DNA of 60,426 bases, filler included, from Basidiobolus ranarum (taxonomy: Eukaryota): NCBI GenBank assembly GCA_040143965.1. It is 4 parts of 4 records of this genome, joined end to end, with 100 filler letters (N's around TTAATTAATTAA, not from the genome) between each part and the next. Parts side by side here need not be neighbours in the genome. Positions count along the whole stretch, not along the records: positions 30,299 to 45,322 come from JASJQH010007273.1; 3 more parts are not named here. One strand, 5' to 3'. The notes beneath the pieces were generated by a model. It searched no databases. It had not been told where the DNA came from and saw nothing but the letters and a program-made list of their open reading frames with translations. A program made the translations under genes and the position numbers. Positions 22,479 to 45,422 of the stretch are shown here, in pieces (position 1 is the first letter of the stretch; the number at the start of each line of letters is the position of its first letter).

Positions 22479-22743
22479 GATAGCATTTAATTTCAATCCT
22501 AAACAATCAGTATCTTAATTGATTGCCGTTTCATGCGTTGTTATGAGATAGACACTATCACTACACCACTATGTTGCCATGAAATTTCGGCCAATTTACG
22601 CTGCTAGTAATTCACGATTTTCAAAATTAATACTTCTTAACACTACAGGCTAAATTTTTTGAATTTTCTTTTGTACTATATATACCAATAGAGGTTCAAT
22701 CTGCATAGTCCAACACTTTTAGGAAAGTGCAGTGTCCATACCT

Positions 22744-25700
22744 ATGTTAGATATTGCTGATTCTGAGGATGGATCACTTTCCATCAGTAACCTTTTAAAG
22801 TACTTGGAAATCCACTTGACTTATCAGCAACATCAAACTCCCCCCAACGCGAAGGTCAAGCGTAGAAAACTAGAAAGGGAAACCATCGCCAGCAATACAC
22901 AGGCCATACTGATAAACACTTGGTCTCTTAAAAGTTCTTCAAGCTTAAAACAGTTTGTTGACGTCTATGAAACAATTACCTCTGGAACGGTTGTAAATTC
23001 CTTCGAGAACTTCGTATATGTAGGAGCAGTTAAAGTTGCTCTGAACCTTGATAAATCCGAGTGGGATGCGCAACTGGCAAACTTGAACTTATCCCACGAA
23101 ACTTTCAAACTACCTGTTACTTTTCTTTTTACCAGGAAAGAAGGAGAGCGTGAAAGTCTTTTCATATATAGTGTTGATCACCATACTCATGCTTATCTTC
23201 CCCTACTTGAAAAACACTTTACCTTAGAAACGAAGAAAATCTCCACTCTAACCGCACTTTTTAGAGAGGCAACGAAAGGAAACCATTTGAAAGTGCAGGG
23301 GTTCCTCGAATTCGACTTTATTACTTCAAGTTGTGAACTTTTATTTGATATCTACTTGCTGAATTCCCTTTTATCTTCGGAGGAGAGTGTTTCCATAGAT
23401 TTTAAGGAGATTCTGAAGGGGTTATTCTGTCAAAACACGACTTTTACAGAAAATGAACTTAGCGATACCTCCACTTTGTACTCCTACTTAAACACCTCTA
23501 ATAATTTACAATACAATGGGCAGGTTTTGAACGAAGAGCTTCTAAATGATCTTAAAGTAACTTTATATCCATTCCAAAAACGGTCCATACAATGGTTGCT
23601 CAAACGGGAAGGGATTTATTCAACTACTCAAAAGATGGAAATGATCCCAGTTTGGTGGAAGAGAGTCCACGAAGAAGACGGATCTTCAGTGGATTTCCAG
23701 TTCAACGTATTAACTGGTAAAATCACCCGTGACCTATCACTGGAAGATCAACACACAGTTCGTGCACCAAGAGGCGGAATTCTGGCTGAAGAGATGGGCC
23801 TTGGTAAAACGATTGAATTGATCGCGTTACATTTACTTCATCGACCCAACCCTCAAGAAATACAAGCATTCAATACAGTAGCGGATTCCGAGAAGTTACT
23901 ACCCTCTTCAGCAACCCTTATTATTACCCCACCGACCATATCCCAACAATGGATGTCCGAAATTCAAACTCATGCACCTTCCTTACGATGCGTATTGTTC
24001 GAAAAGGATAATTTCTCCACGGAAGAATTAAGTCGATATGATGTTGTAGTGATAAGCTTTGATATTTTAAGTAAGCAACTTTACTACGCTCAAGAGACCA
24101 AGTCAAGATCTCGCAGATTCCCGAGCAAATATAAATATTCTCCTAGCCCGTTGGTGAAAATTCTTTGGTGGCGCGTTGTGATCGATGAAGTACAGATAGT
24201 AGAATCCTTGTCTAGCCGTGCTGCCGAGATGGTTTATCATATACCAAGGATCAACAGTTGGGTCGTTAGTGGAACGCCGATTAAACATAGTAGAAATGAT
24301 CTGGTGGTGTTATTGAAGTTTCTGAAGGTTGAACCTTTCTGTTACAATGTATCCCAATGGAAAATGTTGATGGCCCCTGAGAATTTCGAACATTTCCTTG
24401 CTTTGTTTGGGAGTATAATGCAGCGTACATTGAAATCTCAGGTTGAATCCGAACTCTCTATTCCTGCTCAACACACGGAATCAGTTATGTTGCAATTCTC
24501 AGATGTTGAACAATATTTTTATGAGAGTCTTTGGAATTCATGTGTAAATGAATTGGTTTGGTCATCAACAGCAGAAGAAAAAAAGTCGAAGATGAGGGAG
24601 TGGCTTTATAGACTACGACAAACATGCTGCCATCCTCAAGTCTGCTCAAGAAATCGAAGAATTTTAGGCGGAGCTCTAAGATCTATCGACGAGGTGCTAG
24701 AGTTTATGTTCCAACACTCTCGTGCTGATGTACAGTCCTTGGAGCGTATGTATACTACATCCAAAATTAAACGGGCCCAAATCCTCGAGTCGGATGGGAA
24801 GTTGGAAGAAGCCAGGCTGCTGTATCATGAGATACTAACCACCACCCAGAACCAAATAGATCTACTGAAGAAAGAGATAAGCCCTGTAAGTACCCTGCTT
24901 GCAATTGTACCAGACGAGACGCAGCTGAAAGCCACGTCCCAAACAGACGTCAGAGCAGATCAAACTCCAGATACAACCCATCCTGACTTGCGTGCAGAGC
25001 AAGAAGACTTGAAAAATATGAAGTTGTGGCTGCACTTGTGGAGAGAAATTGAACATCGACTTTTGTTCTTTCTAGGATCTATATACTTCAAAATGGAAAA
25101 TGAAGCAGAGGAAACTAGCTACTACGAACTGGCAGAACAAAGTCGAGTAGAATTATTGAGGCCACTCTCCGAAGGATTCCAGTTGGAACTTGAAAGATTC
25201 AAGCGGTTTAGAAAAAGTACGGAAGTGAATCTCGCACAACCTTCTCCAATTTCAAGTAGTGCATTTACTGGTGGTGTCCTTTCACGTGACCTATTTGAAC
25301 GGATAGAGAGTGTGACAACTGCCTTGAACGCTCAGAATGAGCTACTCAAATCGTGTCATGATATTATTGTAAAGATGTTGATTTCAAATCTATGGGATGC
25401 CAACGACAAGGATGCCAATGGGGAGGAATTCCAGCAGTCGCAACTCCAACAAGAAGAGGCTGACGTCTATCAGGACGTTTTCATGCGGATTATCCGTGAC
25501 CGACGTCAGTTAGTTCAGGGAATTGTTATCGGGGCCGGAGACTCGAAATTGAAGACAGCGTCAGATATGACCGAGAATTTAGGGAAGTTTCGAAGGGAGT
25601 ACGTCAGGCCACTTGCACATGGAAATCTCAAAAGTTATTTAGCCGAGCTCAAGCAAATATCAAACAAGCCAATGATCCAAAAGGAAGAGGTCGTCATAGT

Positions 25701-26841
25701 TGAGCAAGAAATACGCCGACTCTCGAAGGTGGTGGAAGAGCTGTCAAATGTGATACAGTTATATGAAAGAGAAATTGGTATGTTCCGCAAGTTGTATAAT
25801 TCCCGTATTGAATACTACCGTCAGTTGCAGAAAATCTCGGACGATGTAACTGAGTTACAATGCTATGATCACAAAAAAGAATTAGAGATATGCAAGGAAA
25901 GCGAGCACAAGCTTCAAATGGAAATTGTACAGTCTGAAGGAAAGCTCCGATATCTACGCCATTTGAAGGAGACAACAGGGACCGAAAAACAACAGGAACA
26001 AGAGAGACTCTGTTTAATTTGCCAAATGCATTTCGATACCGGAATGATTAATCCATGTGGCCACATATATTGTCTGGAGTGCTCCAAAAAATGGTTCGGC
26101 TTGCATTCGAAATGCCCAACATGTAACACAATAGTAGAGAAGACTCAACTAAACAACGTCTGCTTTGTACCAGCCAATATAGAGCATGAGGAGAATCATA
26201 CATTTAACCAAATGTTGCTGCAAAGGATCAAGAACATCAATGTCGATGGGGGTTTTGGGACTAAAGTTGACATGTTGATAAGACATATCAAGTACATTCA
26301 CCAGTGTGACCAGGAGGCTGATGGCCCTGCCTCAAAGGTGATTGTGTTTTCTCAATGGGATTTGGTGTTGAATGTGATAGGCCTAGGTTTAGAAAAGAAT
26401 GGAATCCGCTTCGTGCGGCTCACCGGAAAAGACAAAAACCATACAACAATGAGGTTTTCCAATGACAATAGTATCCAAGTGATACTTCTAAATGCTAAAA
26501 GTCAATCCAGTGGCCTGACACTCGTTGCTGCAAATCATGTATTATTTTGTGAGCCATTAGTCAATCCCGGTCTCGAACTTCAAGCAGTAAATCGTGTGCA
26601 TCGAATCGGACAGACCAGAGAAACGCATGTTTATTGGTACATCTTACAAAACACCATTGAAGAGAAAATCTATGAGCGGTACCAGCAAAAGTCTAAGAAT
26701 TTCACCGAAAACCACTTGAACAATATGTCAGTGTCTGATATTCAGCGAACACTGCTAGACAAAAAGCGAACGGGCTTTGGAGAGATCGTTGGTGATGATG
26801 ATTTGAAATATTTTTTTGAGAGTCTTGGGGTTGATCTCTAA
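22744..26841 (+). CDS. SHPRH/Irc20-like SNF2 helicase with RING E3 ligase (start uncertain; an upstream exon is possible)
   Basis: LYPFQ, GGILAEEMGLGKT (motif I), WWRVVIDEVQ (II), SGTP (III), LRQTCCHPQV, long helical insert, C3HC4 RING (CLIC..CGHIYCLEC..CPTC), HELICc with QAVNRVHRIGQ. Confidence 0.92.
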   Translation: MLDIADSEDGSLSISNLLKYLEIHLTYQQHQTPPNAKVKRRKLERETIASNTQAILINTWSLKSSSSLKQFVDVYETITSGTVVNSFENFVYVGAVKVALNLDKSEWDAQLANLNLSHETFKLPVTFLFTRKEGERESLFIYSVDHHTHAYLPLLEKHFTLETKKISTLTALFREATKGNHLKVQGFLEFDFITSSCELLFDIYLLNSLLSSEESVSIDFKEILKGLFCQNTTFTENELSDTSTLYSYLNTSNNLQYNGQVLNEELLNDLKVTLYPFQKRSIQWLLKREGIYSTTQKMEMIPVWWKRVHEEDGSSVDFQFNVLTGKITRDLSLEDQHTVRAPRGGILAEEMGLGKTIELIALHLLHRPNPQEIQAFNTVADSEKLLPSSATLIITPPTISQQWMSEIQTHAPSLRCVLFEKDNFSTEELSRYDVVVISFDILSKQLYYAQETKSRSRRFPSKYKYSPSPLVKILWWRVVIDEVQIVESLSSRAAEMVYHIPRINSWVVSGTPIKHSRNDLVVLLKFLKVEPFCYNVSQWKMLMAPENFEHFLALFGSIMQRTLKSQVESELSIPAQHTESVMLQFSDVEQYFYESLWNSCVNELVWSSTAEEKKSKMREWLYRLRQTCCHPQVCSRNRRILGGALRSIDEVLEFMFQHSRADVQSLERMYTTSKIKRAQILESDGKLEEARLLYHEILTTTQNQIDLLKKEISPVSTLLAIVPDETQLKATSQTDVRADQTPDTTHPDLRAEQEDLKNMKLWLHLWREIEHRLLFFLGSIYFKMENEAEETSYYELAEQSRVELLRPLSEGFQLELERFKRFRKSTEVNLAQPSPISSSAFTGGVLSRDLFERIESVTTALNAQNELLKSCHDIIVKMLISNLWDANDKDANGEEFQQSQLQQEEADVYQDVFMRIIRDRRQLVQGIVIGAGDSKLKTASDMTENLGKFRREYVRPLAHGNLKSYLAELKQISNKPMIQKEEVVIVEQEIRRLSKVVEELSNVIQLYEREIGMFRKLYNSRIEYYRQLQKISDDVTELQCYDHKKELEICKESEHKLQMEIVQSEGKLRYLRHLKETTGTEKQQEQERLCLICQMHFDTGMINPCGHIYCLECSKKWFGLHSKCPTCNTIVEKTQLNNVCFVPANIEHEENHTFNQMLLQRIKNINVDGGFGTKVDMLIRHIKYIHQCDQEADGPASKVIVFSQWDLVLNVIGLGLEKNGIRFVRLTGKDKNHTTMRFSNDNSIQVILLNAKSQSSGLTLVAANHVLFCEPLVNPGLELQAVNRVHRIGQTRETHVYWYILQNTIEEKIYERYQQKSKNFTENHLNNMSVSDIQRTLLDKKRTGFGEIVGDDDLKYFFESLGVDL

Positions 26842-28651: not shown

Positions 28652-29925
28652 TAGGGGGCATGAAAAGCACCAGGTGGTGTAGACTTTATTTAGCTTATAC
28701 ACTAATCTAAACCAAGTGACAATCAAAATATCAATCCTCTCAGATATTGTGACAATACTGGATCATATCCATACTTCACTTGATGACAAATGTAATCAAG
28801 TTTGGGGGATGTAAATATGGTGTTAAGGGGCACAGGTGGTAAGCTGAAAGGAAGATACTGAATACAAACCAAATGGGCAATAGGACAAAAACCTAGAATA
28901 ATGGGGATCAAAAAAGGTGTCTTGGAGGCAAGGTATTGCTTCCAAAGGTGTACCTGGAAGTCTATAGCAGCAATTTTGGGCAAGGGAGGGCTTCTCAGTT
29001 TGTTCTATAAAGGAAGCAAATTTCCTGACTTCAGGATCTCCCAGCAGTATTCTCCAGCAAGAAGGAGGATCATAGAGGTGGGAACCTCTCCAGACACAAC
29101 CAGAGGGTTCTGACACTTGCAAATACTGATGAATATTCTGGTCTTTGGATAGAGTAATCTAAGACTGTATGGTAGTAATCCAAAGGCATCAAGAATGGCA
29201 TGCCTGTAAGGGCACTCAGGCAGATGGGAAATTAGGGAAGTGATACACCAAACTACAAAGCCATCTAGTTTGGTGGAGTGCCTGGAAGCGAGAGAAAGAA
29301 GAGGTAAGCCAGATTCTAGAACTGGAAAGACAAACTGTTTGAGGAGCAGTGGACAACTGGGAGCAGAAGTTGTAGGGGGTGTAACAGCTAGTAGCTTGTG
29401 AAATGCCTGCCTTGCCAAAACCATTTGTTTCTTGAGGTGAGCAGCACAGTCATTAGGAAGGAAAGGGAATCCAAGATAAGTAGCTTAGTTCCAAGCAGAT
29501 ATAGTTGAGCCTTTCAGAGAGTGAGCAGCCTAGAGGAACAGTTTTGGTCAAAGAGAGCTGGAGATTATTCTGCTGGAGATAACTGCTGATAGTGTCAGAG
29601 TCTTGTTGGATATTGGAGGAGGAGATTCTGATATCATCAGCAAAGAGAGTCATTGTGGAGCACAGGGAGAGACTGGGGAAGTCATTCAGAAAGACAGTAA
29701 ACAGAATAGGGCCAAGAACAGACCCTTGCACTACATCATTAGGCACAGAGTAGATAGTAGACTGCTTAGAAGGATGGAGAATGTTTGCTTGTGGGTCAAG
29801 GAAGAGTGATCTAACCAGGAGAGTGAGAGAAGGTCAAGAGAACTGCTGAAGCTTGAACCAGAGTAAATTCCTGTCAACTGTATCAAAGGCCTTGGTAATA
29901 TCAAAGAGAACTGATGAATACCTTG
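28652..29925 (-). mobile_element. Degenerate 5'-truncated non-LTR retrotransposon (LINE) reverse transcriptase
   Basis: RT motifs SVLFDITKAFDTVDR, VVQGSVLGPILFTVFLND, TLFADDI, LQLSLTKT; frameshifts and stops. Confidence 0.88.
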
Positions 29926-33952: not shown

Positions 33953-34529
33953 ATGGTAAGTACCATTGAACCTATTCACTCTTCCAGTATGTATTTTAAC
34001 CCTCCCACCTAGGCCACCCAACTCAACGAAGAACAAATTGCCGAGTTCAAGGAAGCTTTCTCTCTCTTTGACAAAGATGGTGATGGCAGCATCACCACCA
34101 AGGAACTCGGAACTGTTATGCGTTCCCTCGGACAAAACCCTACTGAAGCCGAGTTACAAGATATGGTTAGCGAGATTGATGCCGACGGTAACGGTCAAAT
34201 TGACTTTACCGAGTTCTTGACTTTGATGGCCCGCAAGATGAAGGATACTGACTCTGAAGAAGAGATCAAGGAAGCCTTCAAGGTCTTCGATAAAGATGGT
34301 AACGGTTTCATTTCTGCCGCTGAACTTCGTCACGTCATGACCAACCTTGGCGAGAAACTTTCTGATGAAGAAGTTGACGAGATGATCCGTGAAGCTGATG
34401 TTGACGGTGATGGTCAAATCAACTATGACGAATTCGTCAAGATGATGGTAAAGTTGAAATAGTCATTCGTTATCTGCATTGCATTGCTTTCTTACTAACT
34501 CATTTTGCTTTCAACAGATGACTAAATAA
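33953..34529 (+). CDS. CMD1: Calmodulin, 149 aa (exons 33953-33955, 34013-34447, 34518-34529)
   Basis: ATG-only first exon; four EF hands ([48 protein letters not shown]); ends MMTK*. Confidence 0.96.
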
Positions 34530-35196: not shown

Positions 35197-36551
35197 ATGT
35201 CCTCTCAACAGTTCAACCAAGTTTTTCAGTTACAGTGTAAAACACAAAGTTATGAGTGGGGCAAGTTAGGTATTAAAAGCAAAGTAGCTCAATACGCTCA
35301 ATCTATTCCAGAGTTCAGTGTAGAAGCAGATAAACCATATGCTGAGGTATTTTCGTTTATCTTGAAGTGAGAGGGGAGTGTTTCTTTTTCTTTTATTTAT
35401 GTTGATTTTTGGTATTACTTTAGTTATGGATGGGTACTCATCCCAACGCACCATCTATCGCCATTTGCCCCGGAAAAGAGTCCGTATCACTTAAGGACTT
35501 GATCACGGAAAGAGTGGAACTGATGACAGAGAAGATCTACCAAAAATATGAAGGAGAATTTCCTTTCTTATTCAAAGTTCTATCCATCAATAAGGCGCTA
35601 TCTATTCAAGCTCATCCGGACAAGAAATTGGCCCAACGTTTATTCTCAGAGCGTCCAGACCTTTATAAAGATCCCAATCATAAACCGGAGATGGCCATCG
35701 CATTGACACCTTTCGAAGCTCTATGTGGATTTAGACCGTTAACAGTGATCAAAGAACATTTGAAAGAATACCCAGAGTTTTCCGAATTAATAGGTGAAGC
35801 ATTAGTTCGTAAGTTTAATGAAACATTAGAAAAGTTTCCTGAAGAGGATAGTGAGATAGGTGTAGTGGAGAAGAAAGAAGTCTTGAGAGGTTTATTTGAA
35901 GCGGTTATGACTCGAGATAATGATTTCATCCAAGAACAATTGTCGAAATTGTTGCTTAGACTCTCCAAGGATTCCACGAAACCAGAGATCTTTGAGTTGT
36001 TGAATCGGTTGAATTCTCAATATCCTGGTGATATAGGTTGTTTCGCGGTGCTATTTTTGAATTATACCGTCTTAAAACCTGGTGAAGCTATCTTCCTTCA
36101 AGCCAATGAACCTCACGCGTACATATCTGGTGATTGTATTGAATGTATGGCCACCAGTGACAATGTTGTTCGTTCTGGATTGACACCCAAGTTTAAGGAT
36201 GTTAAAGTGCTAGTAGATATGTTGACATACGAATCCTACGATATCAAAACCAAAGTAATGTATGGTGAAAGCTACAAGGGTCTAGAACATTCTCTGCTTT
36301 ATGATCCACCCATCGATGAGTTCTCAGTTCTTCGTACTGAGCTTCCCTTGAATAGCAGTGAAAGGGTACCTGGAATCCACGGACCTAGTATCTTGATCGT
36401 GACCAATGGAAATGGTACCCTTGAGTATGCTGAAGAGAAGATCACTTTAGAACAAGGACAAGTGTGGTTTATCTCACCAGATACTGAAGTGGTGTTACAT
36501 AGTAACTCTGAGCAAGCGGTATTTTACCGAGCTTTTAATTCAGAGGAATAA
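35197..36551 (+). CDS. PMI40: Mannose-6-phosphate isomerase type I (intron 35347-35423)
   Basis: YEWGKLG, PYAELWMGTHP, PFLFKVLSINKALSIQAHPDK, YKDPNHKPEM, EPHAY, SDNVVRSGLTPK. Confidence 0.97.
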
Positions 36552-36666: not shown

Positions 36667-39600
36667 TTATTTACATTGAACAAGTAAATCATATGGTTCA
36701 TAGCAATATCCTATAAGAACTGTCAATAGAAGATGTTTAGTTGCAGATAAGTGACGGTCCATGATGGTTGAATTACCTCTTGGGGTAGCTGAAGTTAATT
36801 GCTTCGCGTCAGTATAAACCAACACCAATTCATCCATTGGTTTCAAAGCGACTTCGTTTCCTTGCCCGATCAGTTTGCCGTTAACAAAGGTTCCATTGGT
36901 ACTGAAGTAATCTTGGTCAGCGAATGGGATCCAATAAGGGATAGAGTGGGAGTGGGATGTACTAACCTATTGTCCATTAGATAAACGGTATTTCCACGTT
37001 TTTCAAGTGTGCAGTCTAACAGCGACTGGGTTAATACTGGGATGCAGTACGGTGTTGATTGAAAATACTTACGAATATTACTAACTCTTTGGTCGTTGTA
37101 TCTTACTGGAGTAGGGCATGCTATAAAGAGGTTTCCATCAATTAATCATCTATTCACTCAATGAGAAGGGGATGCTTTATACATGTACGTCTTCCAAAGA
37201 CCAGCTGATATTCTTTCAACCAGACATTTGGATAGTTCATATGAAGTGATCTAAGTCTACCCCAGATCGTAACTTCACGAGCTTGTGAGCTTTCAGTGGG
37301 TTTTTTCCTCTTAGTTGTAGGGGATTCTGGAGAGCTCATAGGGTCTTGTTGAATATTCTTGAACATCACTTGGTAAGCGTTTCAAACTAAAGACTCCAAT
37401 CAAAGGAACATACCATGATTCGATTCTTTTGAGGAGATGGAAGCGGAATCCGAAATACTCCCATGTCTTGTTGTCCAGCGGACTTGGGAAGATAAGCTGG
37501 GTTTGACTTGAAGACATACTTGATATAGTCTGAAATGAATGACAATCCGGATTAAAAGCAGATTCTAGTAGAGTCAAGATATGTTCATATACCGTTAACA
37601 TCCGTATCATTGATGATGATGCCAATAACATCATTATCATCTAACGTGATCACTTTATCTTTACCCACTGGATGCCCATTAACATAACAGCAATTCGCGC
37701 TAAATTAAATGGAAATAAATTCAGTGTTTCAATCATTCACCAGATACATTGTTCCTTACCTGAGATCTTTTAAATAAACGCTATGGTCTGAGCTTTTCCA
37801 AATTTTACAATGTTTTCCACTGATTCTAGGTTCTTGTATTTGAATTTCATTTGCTAATGAATGATCCCAAAAAGATGGTTGAAGATGTCAATGTGATGTT
37901 GACAAGAAAAATTACTCAAAGATGAATATGCTTACTAGAGCTTCTACCAAAAAAGTAAGTATTTTTATAAAGTTCAACATCCTTTCCGGTACGACTTCCG
38001 GGAACCAACTTGAGGGTTCCCCAATGTTGAAGGGGTTTATCTGGCGAGTAAATGTTAGAAAATTGCATTCGTAAAGAAGTTTCGGGAATCAATCATTCAT
38101 TCACTTGATTACCTGTAGCATCACAATTTTCGAATGAGCTATTATTAATTGAATCGGTTCTATCCGACCCATTTTCAACTTTGATGGTAGTGGTGGCAGT
38201 TGGTGATTCTAAGGGCCTTTTACTTGGAATTTTCACTTCTTCGGTATCTTGTAGGGGTTCCTTGGGTTTTTTGGGTTTTTTCGACTGTAAAACATGGTCG
38301 AAGAACATCGTTATTTGGATGAAATTCTCATATGAAGATTGGTAACTAACTGCTTACTCTAAACCAAGGATGATCTAGTGTTTGGTCGATATTGATTCGT
38401 TTTTCGGGATCTTCAGTTAAAAGCCGTGTTAAAAGGTTCTTGGCTGTAGTAGTAAGTCAGTGAGGGTTTATAGGTTACATAAATGAATCTCATGTTCACC
38501 ATACCTTCATTACTGATATTTGGGTGTTCTGGGAAGGTTAAGATCCGAGGGGTTTCTATTTTCACGAAGTGTGAGTCTGGCGAATCTGAAGGGGAGAATG
38601 GAAAACTTCCGAGTAACCTAAATAATAAAGATGTCAAAAAAGTGGTTGCCTCAAATAAAGGTTCAGCAGAGGAACAATAATTATACATCAAATACAAGAT
38701 TATTCCACAAGACCAAAGATCTACAAAACAGAAGGAAACAGCTCGCGTCAGATGCATACCAATCTATAATTTCCTTCCAACGTTTCTACTAACCGACTGC
38801 CTGGCTATAGCTCTTCTGACTATTTGCTGACATGATCTCTAATAAACAATCAGTTAAGACCTATTGATCCTTCGTTGAATGTTATGGAATAGTACAATTA
38901 CCTGGGGCCAAGTACGTCAAAGTTCCACACATGGTTTGTAATATGGATTGCTCACTTACTACCTTTGCAAGACCTTTGAACAATCATTGTAAGTATAACT
39001 CAAGATTTATGGAGAAGTTCAGCGAATAGAGAATACCCACCAAAATCCGATATTTTCACGGTGTTTTTCTCTTGGTTGATCAGCAAAATGTTCTAGAGGA
39101 AGCGTTATACAAAATAATGTCGATCCAATTGAGTGAGAAATATAATGCTTACCTCAGGTTTCATATCACGATGAGTGATTCCTTGATGGTGCAAGTACTA
39201 AAGGATGTCAATGAAATCTGAAGAAGCAGTTTGAATGGTACTGACGTTGCTTACCTGAAGAGCCAGACATATCTGGTGAAACAATTGCTTACACTCGGCT
39301 TCAGGTAGAGTTCCTTTCTCAGTGATATAAGCGAGAAGGTCTCCACCAGTGACTAGCTCCATGACAATCCATAGCGTCTCCTCATTGTCGTAACAACTGA
39401 CGAAGGAAACGATATGCGGCTAGATCTACGAGTGAGTATTTCATCAATGTGCTCTTTGAATCATAGAATCTTACATGGTTGAGATTCTTCAATATTTTAA
39501 CCTTGATTCGGATGTGTTGAGAATGATTACTAAAATGTTGACCACTCATCTTCGCGAAGCAATAGAATCAATTTACCTCTCTAGCAAAAGCTTCCTTCAC

Positions 39601-40630
39601 TTTAGGTTTCATGAAGAATCGAGTCTTATCGATCACTTTACACGCGTATCTTTCTCCAGTTTCTTTATCGACCACCAAATGAACTGCCGAGAAGTTCCCT
39701 CTAAGAAGAAGAGGATCAACATGAATTATGGTACAAGCAAGTCAATTGTATTATGCCGCAATCACGTACGTGCCAAGAATATGTCTGAATGAATATTTTT
39801 CATGAACGGCCGAGAGTTTTTTCTATAGATTCCAAACACTACTATCAATATTCAAGAATCTCCAAATATCTTTTAAAAATGGAGGATTTCTTACCTGGTT
39901 CACCTGAACTTCTGTACCATGGTTGGTTATTTGAAATAGATAGTCTACAAATGAATGGCTTTAGCATATAATTCTATTCTAAAAAACCCATGAACGGAAT
40001 GAAAACCCACGATTTTCTGAACGACCACTAGTTTTAGGTAAAGTACCAAAGGAAATTTCGTCTCCATGAACTAATAAAATTTTCTTCCCTTTTCCCAAGA
40101 GTTTCTTGCCGATAAAGGTACCGTTGGAACTATAGTATATGTATGTATAAGGAGAGGAGTTCCCTCGAATATTCAATAATCAATACTTGAAATTCGCTAT
40201 ATCATTGAGTTATACCTGAGATCTTCGATAAGAATGGAAGTTCCGTGAATGGAATTCTCGTCTTTATATGGCTAAAGAAGAGTGAGAATAAGTGTAAATA
40301 CTCCAGACTTTTTAAAAGGATTTTTAATGGTGCATCGGTTTGATTCAGAAGAGTGAAAGGGTATAGACTACAAAGGATACGTACAGTAAATATTCTACAA
40401 TGTTTATTACTGATCCTTCTGTCATCGGGGGAAACGATGTCGCACTCTGGATGTCTACCGATTAAATAACCACTCTCCAGTTTTTCTTTGAACAAGTCGA
40501 CGGGTGGAAAATGAGGCGACAAAGGGATTAATTTGGCGAGGATTGCTTCCTGACTGATCGAGATTTCTTGTGATTGTGGAGTTTCCTGAGTACTTTGATC
40601 AGGTTGCGTTGGCTGAGTTGCAGAATCCAT
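36667..40630 (-). CDS. Rad53/Chk2/Cds1-like checkpoint Ser/Thr kinase: SQ/TQ cluster, FHA, kinase, FHA, FHA (many exons)
   Basis: N-terminal TQ/SQ cluster; FHA1 IGRHPEC..ISNKHC..SSNGTF; kinase LGTGNFSAV, ACKVI, HRDMKPEN, DFG, CGTLTYLAPE, DLWSCG; two further FHA-like domains after the kinase (see findings). Confidence 0.9.
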
Positions 40631-41016: not shown

Positions 41017-43656
<2,640 letters not shown>

Positions 43657-44025: not shown

Positions 44026-45322
44026 TCACAGTTCAATTTGTTGGATTGAGTTTGCCAACTCATCTACATCCTTACTCTCTTGAGTAGTCTTTTGCTTGTA
44101 CTCTGTCGATAGCATCGACATTATTTGCGCCTGTGTAGCGTATGGATTAGAGTCTTTCACACGTTTGAAGTTTTCCTAGCAAGTGAGATGCGTAAGTATA
44201 AGTCAGGATATACATGAATATTATTCAGACGTACTTTGACAAACAGTTGATATTTGTTGGGCTCGCGCTTCTTATAAGGTGTACCATCTTTTTTTAGCCT
44301 TTCCATTTCACGCAGTTTACTAAGGTGAATCATTCAGTTAGCTGACATACCAAAGAACAGAAAATAAAGAGTTGTTTACCTCCGACAAACTCCGCACGCA
44401 TGTCTATCTGTATCAATGGATTTGGAATGTCTACCATAACTAGAGAAGGGGTATTATTAAGGGATCTCAGTTTATCGAGCAAAGCTTATTGATACTTACA
44501 CTTTCTTACAAACTGGATTAACACACTCAAAGTAATACTTGTAAGCGATCTCGTATGAATGACATGTGGTGATGTTGAGATCTGGATAGACTTTCATGAC
44601 CTTCTGGGCCCTAAAGAGAATAGTTGGCTGATTAGCTCAATGTATCAAAGCAGCAGACAAGCAAATACCTACCAATATTTAAATTCAGCACCGTGAGCTG
44701 GTCTGGAGATATGATTGATAATCCAAGCTGCGCAATGGCACAGCTCATGTGCTAAGGTGTTTCTGAGGCGGTCTAACACAAGAGTTTAGCGAGAAAAATA
44801 AGTAAACGAGAATGAAGCAGCTCAAAACTACCTATATTATCTACGACTTTAGTGGACAATTCCACTCTAGACGTGTAGCTCCATTCGTCAGCATATCTTT
44901 GCCTGGAACACATACGAATTGTTAGTGGACTTTTTTCATTGCTTCGTTAGTATGCTACCGCCGGCATTACCTGTGAGAAATTGCTCGTCCAGCTGTTGTT
45001 TTCAATGTGACGGACCAGGTAATTTTCATTTCTTTCGGTAACTTGCCATCGAAAACCTTTCGGTTGTATTCATGAAAGAGTTCCCTTGTCAAATGCTCCC
45101 GATATTTCTTGAAATGTCTGGCTGCAGTGGTCTTTGTGGCTGAATAAATTAGTGTGGCTGATTGAGGAGTTCTAAATGGTGTTCGCGGGACACTTTCGTT
45201 AAAATTCGACGGAGTTTCAGGCGTGGGGGGAGGCTCCATCCAAAAGGAATCGTCATCTTTAATCTCAATCACGCGATAGGTAATATTTCCTTCGGTGGAA
45301 ATCAAAATATTAATATACATTA
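44026..45322 (-). CDS. SprT-like metalloprotease with zinc ribbon and C-terminal HMG-box-like region (GCNA/ACRC-like), 5' truncated
   Basis: LFHEYNRKVFDGKLP..ITWSVTLKTTAG, LRNTLAHELCH (HExxH), HGAEFKYWA, TTCHSYEI.YKY.FEC..C, YGRHSKSID..CGVC, NKYQLFVKENF. Confidence 0.9.
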
Positions 45323-45422
45323 NNNNNNNNNNNNNNNNNNNNNNNNNNNNNNNNNNNNNNNNNNNNTTAATTAATTAANNNNNNNNNNNNNNNNNNNNNN
45401 NNNNNNNNNNNNNNNNNNNNNN
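45323..45422. other. Artificial contig spacer
   Basis: N44-TTAATTAATTAA-N44. Confidence 0.98.

Follow-up and report, generated by a model that had tools for sequence, protein, structure and literature searches.

Here, we report that a gene on the minus strand of a 60,426-nucleotide (nt) stretch of Basidiobolus ranarum DNA (assembly GCA_040143965.1; this whole stretch, filler included, is called the window below) encodes a Rad53/Chk2-like kinase, KAK9711583.1, with three FHA domains, one in front of the kinase domain (FHA1) and two behind it (FHA2 and FHA3). The reading that we hold to be likely is that KAK9711583.1 represents, in Basidiobolus, the fungal Rad53 branch of checkpoint effector kinases, that the three-FHA layout is older than the split between chytrids and the other fungi, and that FHA2 and FHA3 are an old tandem duplication, of which yeast Rad53 kept FHA2 and lost FHA3 and other lineages lost both. 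Judged from the sequence comparisons below, a post-kinase FHA domain is older than the budding yeasts. The three-FHA layout is probably the ancestral form and yeast Rad53 probably arose by loss of one FHA domain. Because Chytridiomycota, Kickxellomycota, and Calcarisporiellomycota all have members with this layout, reduction is the better reading of yeast Rad53.

The reading frame runs from an ATG at 40630 to a TAA at 36667 and is interrupted by 24 introns of 55-113 nt, all of them with GT-AG ends. Joined, the exons give a product of 776 residues without internal stops, identical letter for letter to the public Basidiobolus ranarum model P0001 (KAK9711583.1), with the donor of intron 21 at 37182. 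An alternative donor at 37188 (774 residues) was dropped because 37182 fits KAK9711583.1 and places the intron at the aligned codon of intron 17 in FHA2. An earlier note on this DNA had proposed that GT-AG splicing of short minus-strand exons adds two FHA domains after the kinase; the open spliced frame bears this out, and the FHA2 and FHA3 motifs, coordinates, and linker features (SP sites and a basic patch) quoted there are all present. The largest gap between the kinase exons and the FHA exons is at most 113 nt, and the FHA2-FHA3 DNA has a single match in the B. ranarum genome.

A Pfam scan of the spliced protein returned one kinase domain (Pkinase, residues 167-428, 263 bits) and PF00498 in three stretches (166 bits in total), with matches for all three FHA domains, in agreement with the domain composition first proposed. 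Even a six-frame PF00498 search of the same genome, blind to splicing, gave 42.9 bits for the FHA2 region and 23.1 bits for the C-terminal exon of FHA3, both above the cut-off of 20.7. The kinase is intact (K196, E216, HRD-K-N, DFG, APE, activation-loop T326/T330; invariant alignment columns), and five SQ/TQ sites lie within residues 5-27, ahead of FHA1. The five signature residues G, R, S, H, and N, conserved in FHA domains according to an excerpt of PMC4037201, are kept in FHA1, FHA2, and FHA3 alike, as had been claimed for the phosphothreonine-binding GR, SxxH, and Asn positions of the last two. A dead FHA2 finds no support in the family counts, in which these residues are kept in 17, 17, 18, 17, and 17 of 18 FHA2 domains, respectively. 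AlphaFold2, run with a 24-sequence alignment, predicted three all-beta sandwich FHA domains and a kinase joined by disordered, low-confidence linkers; the predicted local distance difference test values of 10-residue blocks are mostly 75-95 at residues 491-600 and 661-770 and low at residues 1-26, and the predicted template modeling score of 0.50 does not define a fixed domain arrangement. In the FHA2-FHA3 linker, SPQK occupies residues 620-623 and KRKK residues 643-646.

Relatives were collected by a HMMER scan of 1.84 billion cluster representatives, from which the best 150 of 22,457 proteins at E up to 1e-30 were taken; this list is no census because multi-domain proteins rank high in it. 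A local FHA profile run over 159 proteins gave 16 with the order FHA-kinase-FHA-FHA (KAK9711583.1 and 15 of the best 150), two kinase-FHA-FHA fragments, nine FHA-kinase-FHA proteins, and 73 FHA-kinase proteins. Pfam, applied to 32 picked proteins, agreed for 14 of the 15 relatives, with three FHA stretches each, and found two in the remaining one, Synchytrium P0148, whose FHA1 is degenerate. All of the three-FHA relatives are gene predictions. Organism names were available for 14 of the 15: 11 chytrid genera (Spizellomyces, Cladochytrium, Blyttiomyces, Irineochytrium, Zopfochytrium, Borealophlyctis, Nowakowskiella, Fimicolochytrium, Physocladia, Chytriomyces, and Synchytrium) together with Tieghemiomyces and Dispira (Dimargaritales) and Calcarisporiella. 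Four checked taxa fall into four phyla in the NCBI taxonomy, so that the layout spans the three phyla named above beyond Basidiobolus; the remaining named genera are placed by their usual classification. The earlier idea of an expanded architecture thus has to be given up as far as the Basidiobolus lineage is concerned, and a species-specific expansion is ruled out by the same layout in chytrids, Dimargaritales, and Calcarisporiella. Other searches added nothing: a word-index search with the FHA2-FHA3 region among proteins of similar length gave no fungal relatives (six matches in 728 candidates, one of them KAK9711583.1), the same search among shorter proteins gave two matches in 258, both unrelated tandem-FHA proteins, metagenome scans for the DNA of some three-FHA proteins gave 0 of 48 in one and 16 of 396, kinase-only, in the other, and ESM Atlas returned generic FHA clusters only.

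The two post-kinase domains are distinct from FHA1 and from each other. A tree of 64 FHA domains separates FHA2, FHA3, and the C-terminal FHA of Rad53 from every FHA1 with support of 100/99, which disfavors one option left by the earlier note, an origin of the post-kinase FHA domains independent of Saccharomycotina Rad53, and together with the wide distribution of the layout supports the other, that they predate it. When profiles were built from the 15 relatives with Basidiobolus left out, each FHA domain of KAK9711583.1 scored best with its own position (FHA1 110.9, FHA2 97.9, and FHA3 88.8 bits), and leave-one-out sorting assigned 35 of 36 FHA2 and FHA3 domains correctly. One intron position, identical in aligned codon and phase, recurs in all three FHA domains (introns 2, 18, and 23) and is without an intron in four other FHA loci of the genome caught by a motif pattern, and FHA2 and FHA3 have a second position in common (introns 17 and 21); these shared positions and their lack in the other loci fit an internal duplication. 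A third pair (introns 19 and 24, both phase 1) is similar by eye and was not counted, lying in different alignment columns. These features suggest that an old tandem duplication behind the kinase gave rise to FHA2 and FHA3. FHA2 also carries a mark of its own: the Thr after N-G is found in 0 of 18 FHA2, 16 of 18 FHA3, 13 of 16 FHA1, and 0 of six Rad53 C-terminal FHA domains. The SANCC sequence pointed out before in the Basidiobolus FHA2 is therefore present as described, and it is more than a local oddity, loss of the Thr marking FHA2 throughout the family and the Rad53 C-terminal FHA as well. A KR-containing patch occurs in the FHA2-FHA3 linker of 17 of 18 relatives and a basic tail behind the last FHA in six of six Rad53 proteins, by a permissive pattern used without a control. 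Please note that three chytrid proteins, P0148, P0104, and P0061, have lost the FHA1 Arg and keep it in FHA3 (and in FHA2 where aligned), hinting at a functional shift to the C-terminal pair. For FHA3 of both KAK9711583.1 and P0026, the best sequence match among solved structures is the CHFR FHA, which may only reflect a canonical FHA domain.

As to which of the two domains the budding yeasts kept, these comparisons make it quite probable that yeast Rad53 FHA2 descends from FHA2 of the three-FHA kinase. The Rad53 C-terminal FHA joins FHA2 of P0026, P0132, and P0094 in the FHA tree (92/92), and when six Rad53 C-terminal FHA domains are compared pairwise with P0026 and P0132, the nearest three-FHA kin, FHA2 scores higher than FHA3 in all 12 pairs, with profile scores pointing the same way (87 versus 43 and 88 versus 37 bits). 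The solved yeast FHA2 (1qu5/1dmz) aligns to P0026 FHA2 (E 9e-5) and weakly to FHA2 of KAK9711583.1 (E 0.014-0.02). An alternative history from the same ancestral three-FHA kinase, in which FHA2 was the domain lost and yeast Rad53 retains FHA3 or a recombinant of FHA2 and FHA3, draws on results that do weigh against us: in approximately unbiased (AU) tests FHA3 alternatives as the source of the Rad53 C-terminal FHA were not rejected (p=0.40 and 0.24), family profiles favor FHA2 in four of six Rad53 C-terminal FHA domains, P0115 and P0155 scoring higher on FHA3, and a Rad53 C-terminal FHA profile prefers FHA2 in seven of 18 proteins and FHA3 in 11. FHA3 is the more canonical domain, however, and may for this reason attract generic scores; moreover, the Thr after N-G is lost only in FHA2 and the Rad53 C-terminal FHA, and the Rad53 basic tail corresponds in place to the patch of the FHA2-FHA3 linker. 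We consider this alternative unlikely.

The position of the whole protein was examined with unrooted trees made from FHA1 and the kinase only, which keeps out any influence of the C-terminal domains. FastTree was run on 103 rows and IQ-TREE on a selection of 65 of them. IQ-TREE placed Basidiobolus with Coemansia, Dispira, and Tieghemiomyces (99/96) and the chytrids together (100/100). The three-FHA-type P0026 and the fragment P0132 belong to a group (100/99) that also includes six Rad53 proteins with two FHA domains and two proteins with one; this group is anchored by P0112, whose record is named Rad53p, and by P0155, with 487 bits to yeast Rad53 versus 203 to Chk2. P0094, also of the three-FHA type, sits beside long-tailed single-FHA kinases (97/86), away from P0026 and P0132 next to Rad53, and these positions suggest several separate losses of the C-terminal FHA domains. 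Single-FHA proteins also fall inside the Rad53 side of the tree; for P0129, possibly Cds1-like, an ESM Atlas search gave no confirmation. In this unrooted tree two-FHA Rad53 lies within the three-FHA kinases; a three-FHA clade excluding Rad53 was rejected by the AU test (p=0.0003), and the top Foldseek match is Rad53 1-466. The B. ranarum genome encodes two further single-FHA kinases, 43-45% identical to KAK9711583.1, elsewhere in the tree. These Chk2/Dun1-like paralogs (G000:C8060, L024:746-2080, and G000:C7585, L025:1480-2817) are sisters (100/99). In contrast to the three-FHA gene with its 24 introns, a single long frame covers the FHA and most of the kinase in each of them.

Several observations speak against the Rad53 assignment. 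The branch uniting all Rad53-side kinases versus other single-FHA kinases has support of 90/53 in an unrooted tree, the groups for the AU tests were named after the trees were seen and tested under LG+G4 without a mixture model, and the PDB sequence match of KAK9711583.1 is better for human Chk2 (228 bits) than for yeast Rad53 (205 bits). The FHA1 Arg is kept in 13 of 16 relatives only, some FHA1 domains being degenerate. There is no SQ/TQ site between the kinase and FHA2 here, unlike in several Rad53 proteins; a second SQ/TQ cluster at this place is typical of Saccharomycotina-type Rad53. If the branch and the Chk2 score are given full weight, post-kinase FHA domains would have been gained more than once and the chytrid and Basidiobolus three-FHA kinases would not be Rad53 orthologs. 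This we find very improbable, as FHA2 and FHA3 are position-specific across phyla and cluster with the Rad53 C-terminal FHA, three-FHA proteins stand inside the Rad53 group itself, and the genome has its separate single-FHA paralogs, union of which with the Basidiobolus group was rejected (p=0.018).

The kinase, FHA2, and FHA3 are probably made from a single transcript. Some doubt comes from Basidiobolus meristosporus, whose models P0002 and P0008 (ORY02520.1 and ORX67724.1, both 467 residues) stop just past the kinase, and no stand-alone FHA2-FHA3 protein from that genus was found in the word-index searches of similar-length and shorter proteins. Both models carry a 20-residue insert in the kinase C-lobe at the site of intron 14; since intron 14 is also read through, they are probably truncated by faulty annotation, with the downstream FHA exons left unannotated. 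That the main Basidiobolus product ends after the kinase by read-through of intron 15 or early polyadenylation, FHA2-FHA3 being a minor isoform or a separate gene, is very unlikely, although a transcript retaining intron 15 would reach a stop at codon 433, so that a short isoform may exist, and although the intron holds an in-frame ATG. This intron, directly after the kinase, is 73 nt long with ordinary ends (GTAAGC...TACAG), too short to fit a terminator and a promoter easily, fifteen other public proteins (also gene predictions) join all four domains, and no stand-alone FHA2-FHA3 relative appeared among shorter proteins, which is weak evidence.

In the standard scheme for Chk2 and Rad53, priming by ATM/ATR is followed by FHA-mediated pairing and trans-autophosphorylation, and it is by this analogy that we infer kinase activity, FHA ligands, and localization for KAK9711583.1. 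Mec1/Tel1-type kinases would phosphorylate the N-terminal TQ cluster, FHA1 would bind the phosphorylated TQ sites of a second molecule, and T326/T330 would be the sites of mutual activation of the two kinases. FHA2 and FHA3, carried by flexible linkers, may dock with two-point avidity on a mediator phosphorylated at multiple Thr residues (Rad9/Crb2- or Mrc1-like), and the KRKK patch between them probably directs nuclear import, possibly controlled by the adjoining CDK-type SP sites. In excerpts of the yeast literature, FHA2 binds Rad9 and Rad53 carries a C-terminal nuclear localization signal (NLS) (PMC2064674), and Rad53 S774 is phosphorylated by Cdk1 (PMC2876151). With slightly better than even confidence, we propose that fungal Rad53 started out with three functional FHA domains, the tandem post-kinase pair reading two phosphothreonines on a mediator at once, that successive truncation of this protein gave yeast Rad53 with two FHA domains and Cds1 and Cryptococcus Rad53 with one, and that the Rad9-specific yeast FHA2 with its trailing NLS is a remnant of FHA2 and the FHA2-FHA3 linker.

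In the usual account, Rad53 is Chk2 to which yeasts added an FHA domain. Within fungi our data point the opposite way: several lineages would have lost domains from a three-FHA kinase, next to which a separate single-FHA paralog was retained. This bears on the choice of a fungal kinase for comparison with human Chk2, supplies Rad53 FHA2 with an origin, and opens a direct way to test the contribution of the third FHA; it alters the history of a well-studied protein and is not a new kind of system. The earlier note had allowed that the layout might turn out common and already described: common it is among early-diverging fungi, and no description of a three-FHA Rad53 was found in the literature searched, which left out most subscription papers and supplements (kinome supplements could list the layout). 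The proteins themselves are already public under automatic names; it is their description as three-FHA Rad53 that was not found. The excerpts of PMC13451438, PMC2838846, and PMC4037201 hold none, "three FHA domains" in that of PMC4037201 referring to three different proteins.

Table. Features of the three-FHA kinase gene and of its neighbors in the window
Feature	Position	Strand	Basis or remark
Whole gene, 25 exons, SQ/TQ cluster-FHA1-kinase-FHA2-FHA3 protein	36667..40630	-	spliced frame and identity to KAK9711583.1
N-terminal SQ/TQ cluster (T5, T8, T14, S20, S26), predicted ATM/ATR sites	40550..40618	-	sequence; role by analogy with Rad53/Chk2
FHA1 (about residues 30-146; G58 R59 S74 H77 N103), exons 1-4	39928..40543	-	Pfam 55-129; own-position profile
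CAMK-group kinase domain (167-428), exons 5-15	38361..39795	-	Pfam; alignment; best PDB matches Chk2 and Rad53
Kinase-FHA2 linker, 69 residues (exon 16 and introns 15, 16), disordered, 0 SQ/TQ	38024..38360	-	sequence, AlphaFold2
FHA2 (about 493-597; G518 R519 S533 H536 N555; N-C-C replaces N-G-T), exons 17-20	37504..38023	-	Pfam, profiles, AlphaFold2
FHA2-FHA3 linker with CDK-type SPQK (37437-37426) and basic NLS-like KRKK (37312-37301)	37265..37503	-	sequence
FHA3 (about 659-768; G682 R683 S699 H702 N720; canonical NGT), exons 21-25	36694..37264	-	Pfam, profiles, AlphaFold2
Phosphomannose isomerase	35424-36551	+	no link to kinase gene seen
Calmodulin-like frame	34013-34462	+	no link to kinase gene seen
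His-rich cation-efflux transporter	about 41017-43200	-	no link to kinase gene seen

The flanking genes, the cation-efflux gene upstream and the convergent phosphomannose isomerase ending at 36551, are unrelated to the kinase gene. Elsewhere, the window holds a single frame of 1372 codons at 22723-26841 (+) that has SNF2, RING, and helicase-C domains and is likely a DNA-repair gene, an SprT-like frame at 44967-45374 (-) adjoining a gap of N's, and a broken reverse-transcriptase fragment at 29005-29833 (-), probably a decayed retroelement. Among the single-FHA kinase matches, tails vary within the family, with other C-terminal additions such as PF02825 in P0005 and a PBZ finger in P0035.

Compared with the known systems, KAK9711583.1 resembles Rad53 of S. 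cerevisiae and Candida in its N-terminal SQ/TQ cluster, FHA1, CAMK-type kinase, and post-kinase FHA followed by a basic patch; the unrooted kinase tree tentatively puts both on one side (the 90/53 branch). It differs in its third, C-terminal FHA, the Saccharomycotina type having exactly two that flank the kinase, and in the 24 introns of its gene. The FHA1 loop RISNKH is close to RLSNKH of Rad53 FHA1, in which, by an excerpt of PMC4037201, Arg83 selects Asp at pT+3. With human Chk2 it shares the core of SQ/TQ cluster, FHA, and kinase, the best PDB sequence match (228 bits), and the activation loop, QTMCGT here being aligned with RTLCGT; Chk2, however, is without a post-kinase FHA. S. pombe Cds1 and Cryptococcus Rad53, which are called Rad53 orthologs, have a single N-terminal FHA and lack the post-kinase FHA domains, which we read as secondary loss; an excerpt of PMC6315099 gives one FHA for C. 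neoformans Rad53 and two for ScRad53 and CaRad53. The database three-FHA kinases, e.g., Spizellomyces KND04321.1, Calcarisporiella KAL1925668.1, and Tieghemiomyces KAJ1912629.1, automatically named CAMK kinase, Checkpoint kinase 2, or RAD53, have the same domain order and position-specific FHA features, and differ from KAK9711583.1 in sequence (31-39% identity) and in widely varying linker lengths.

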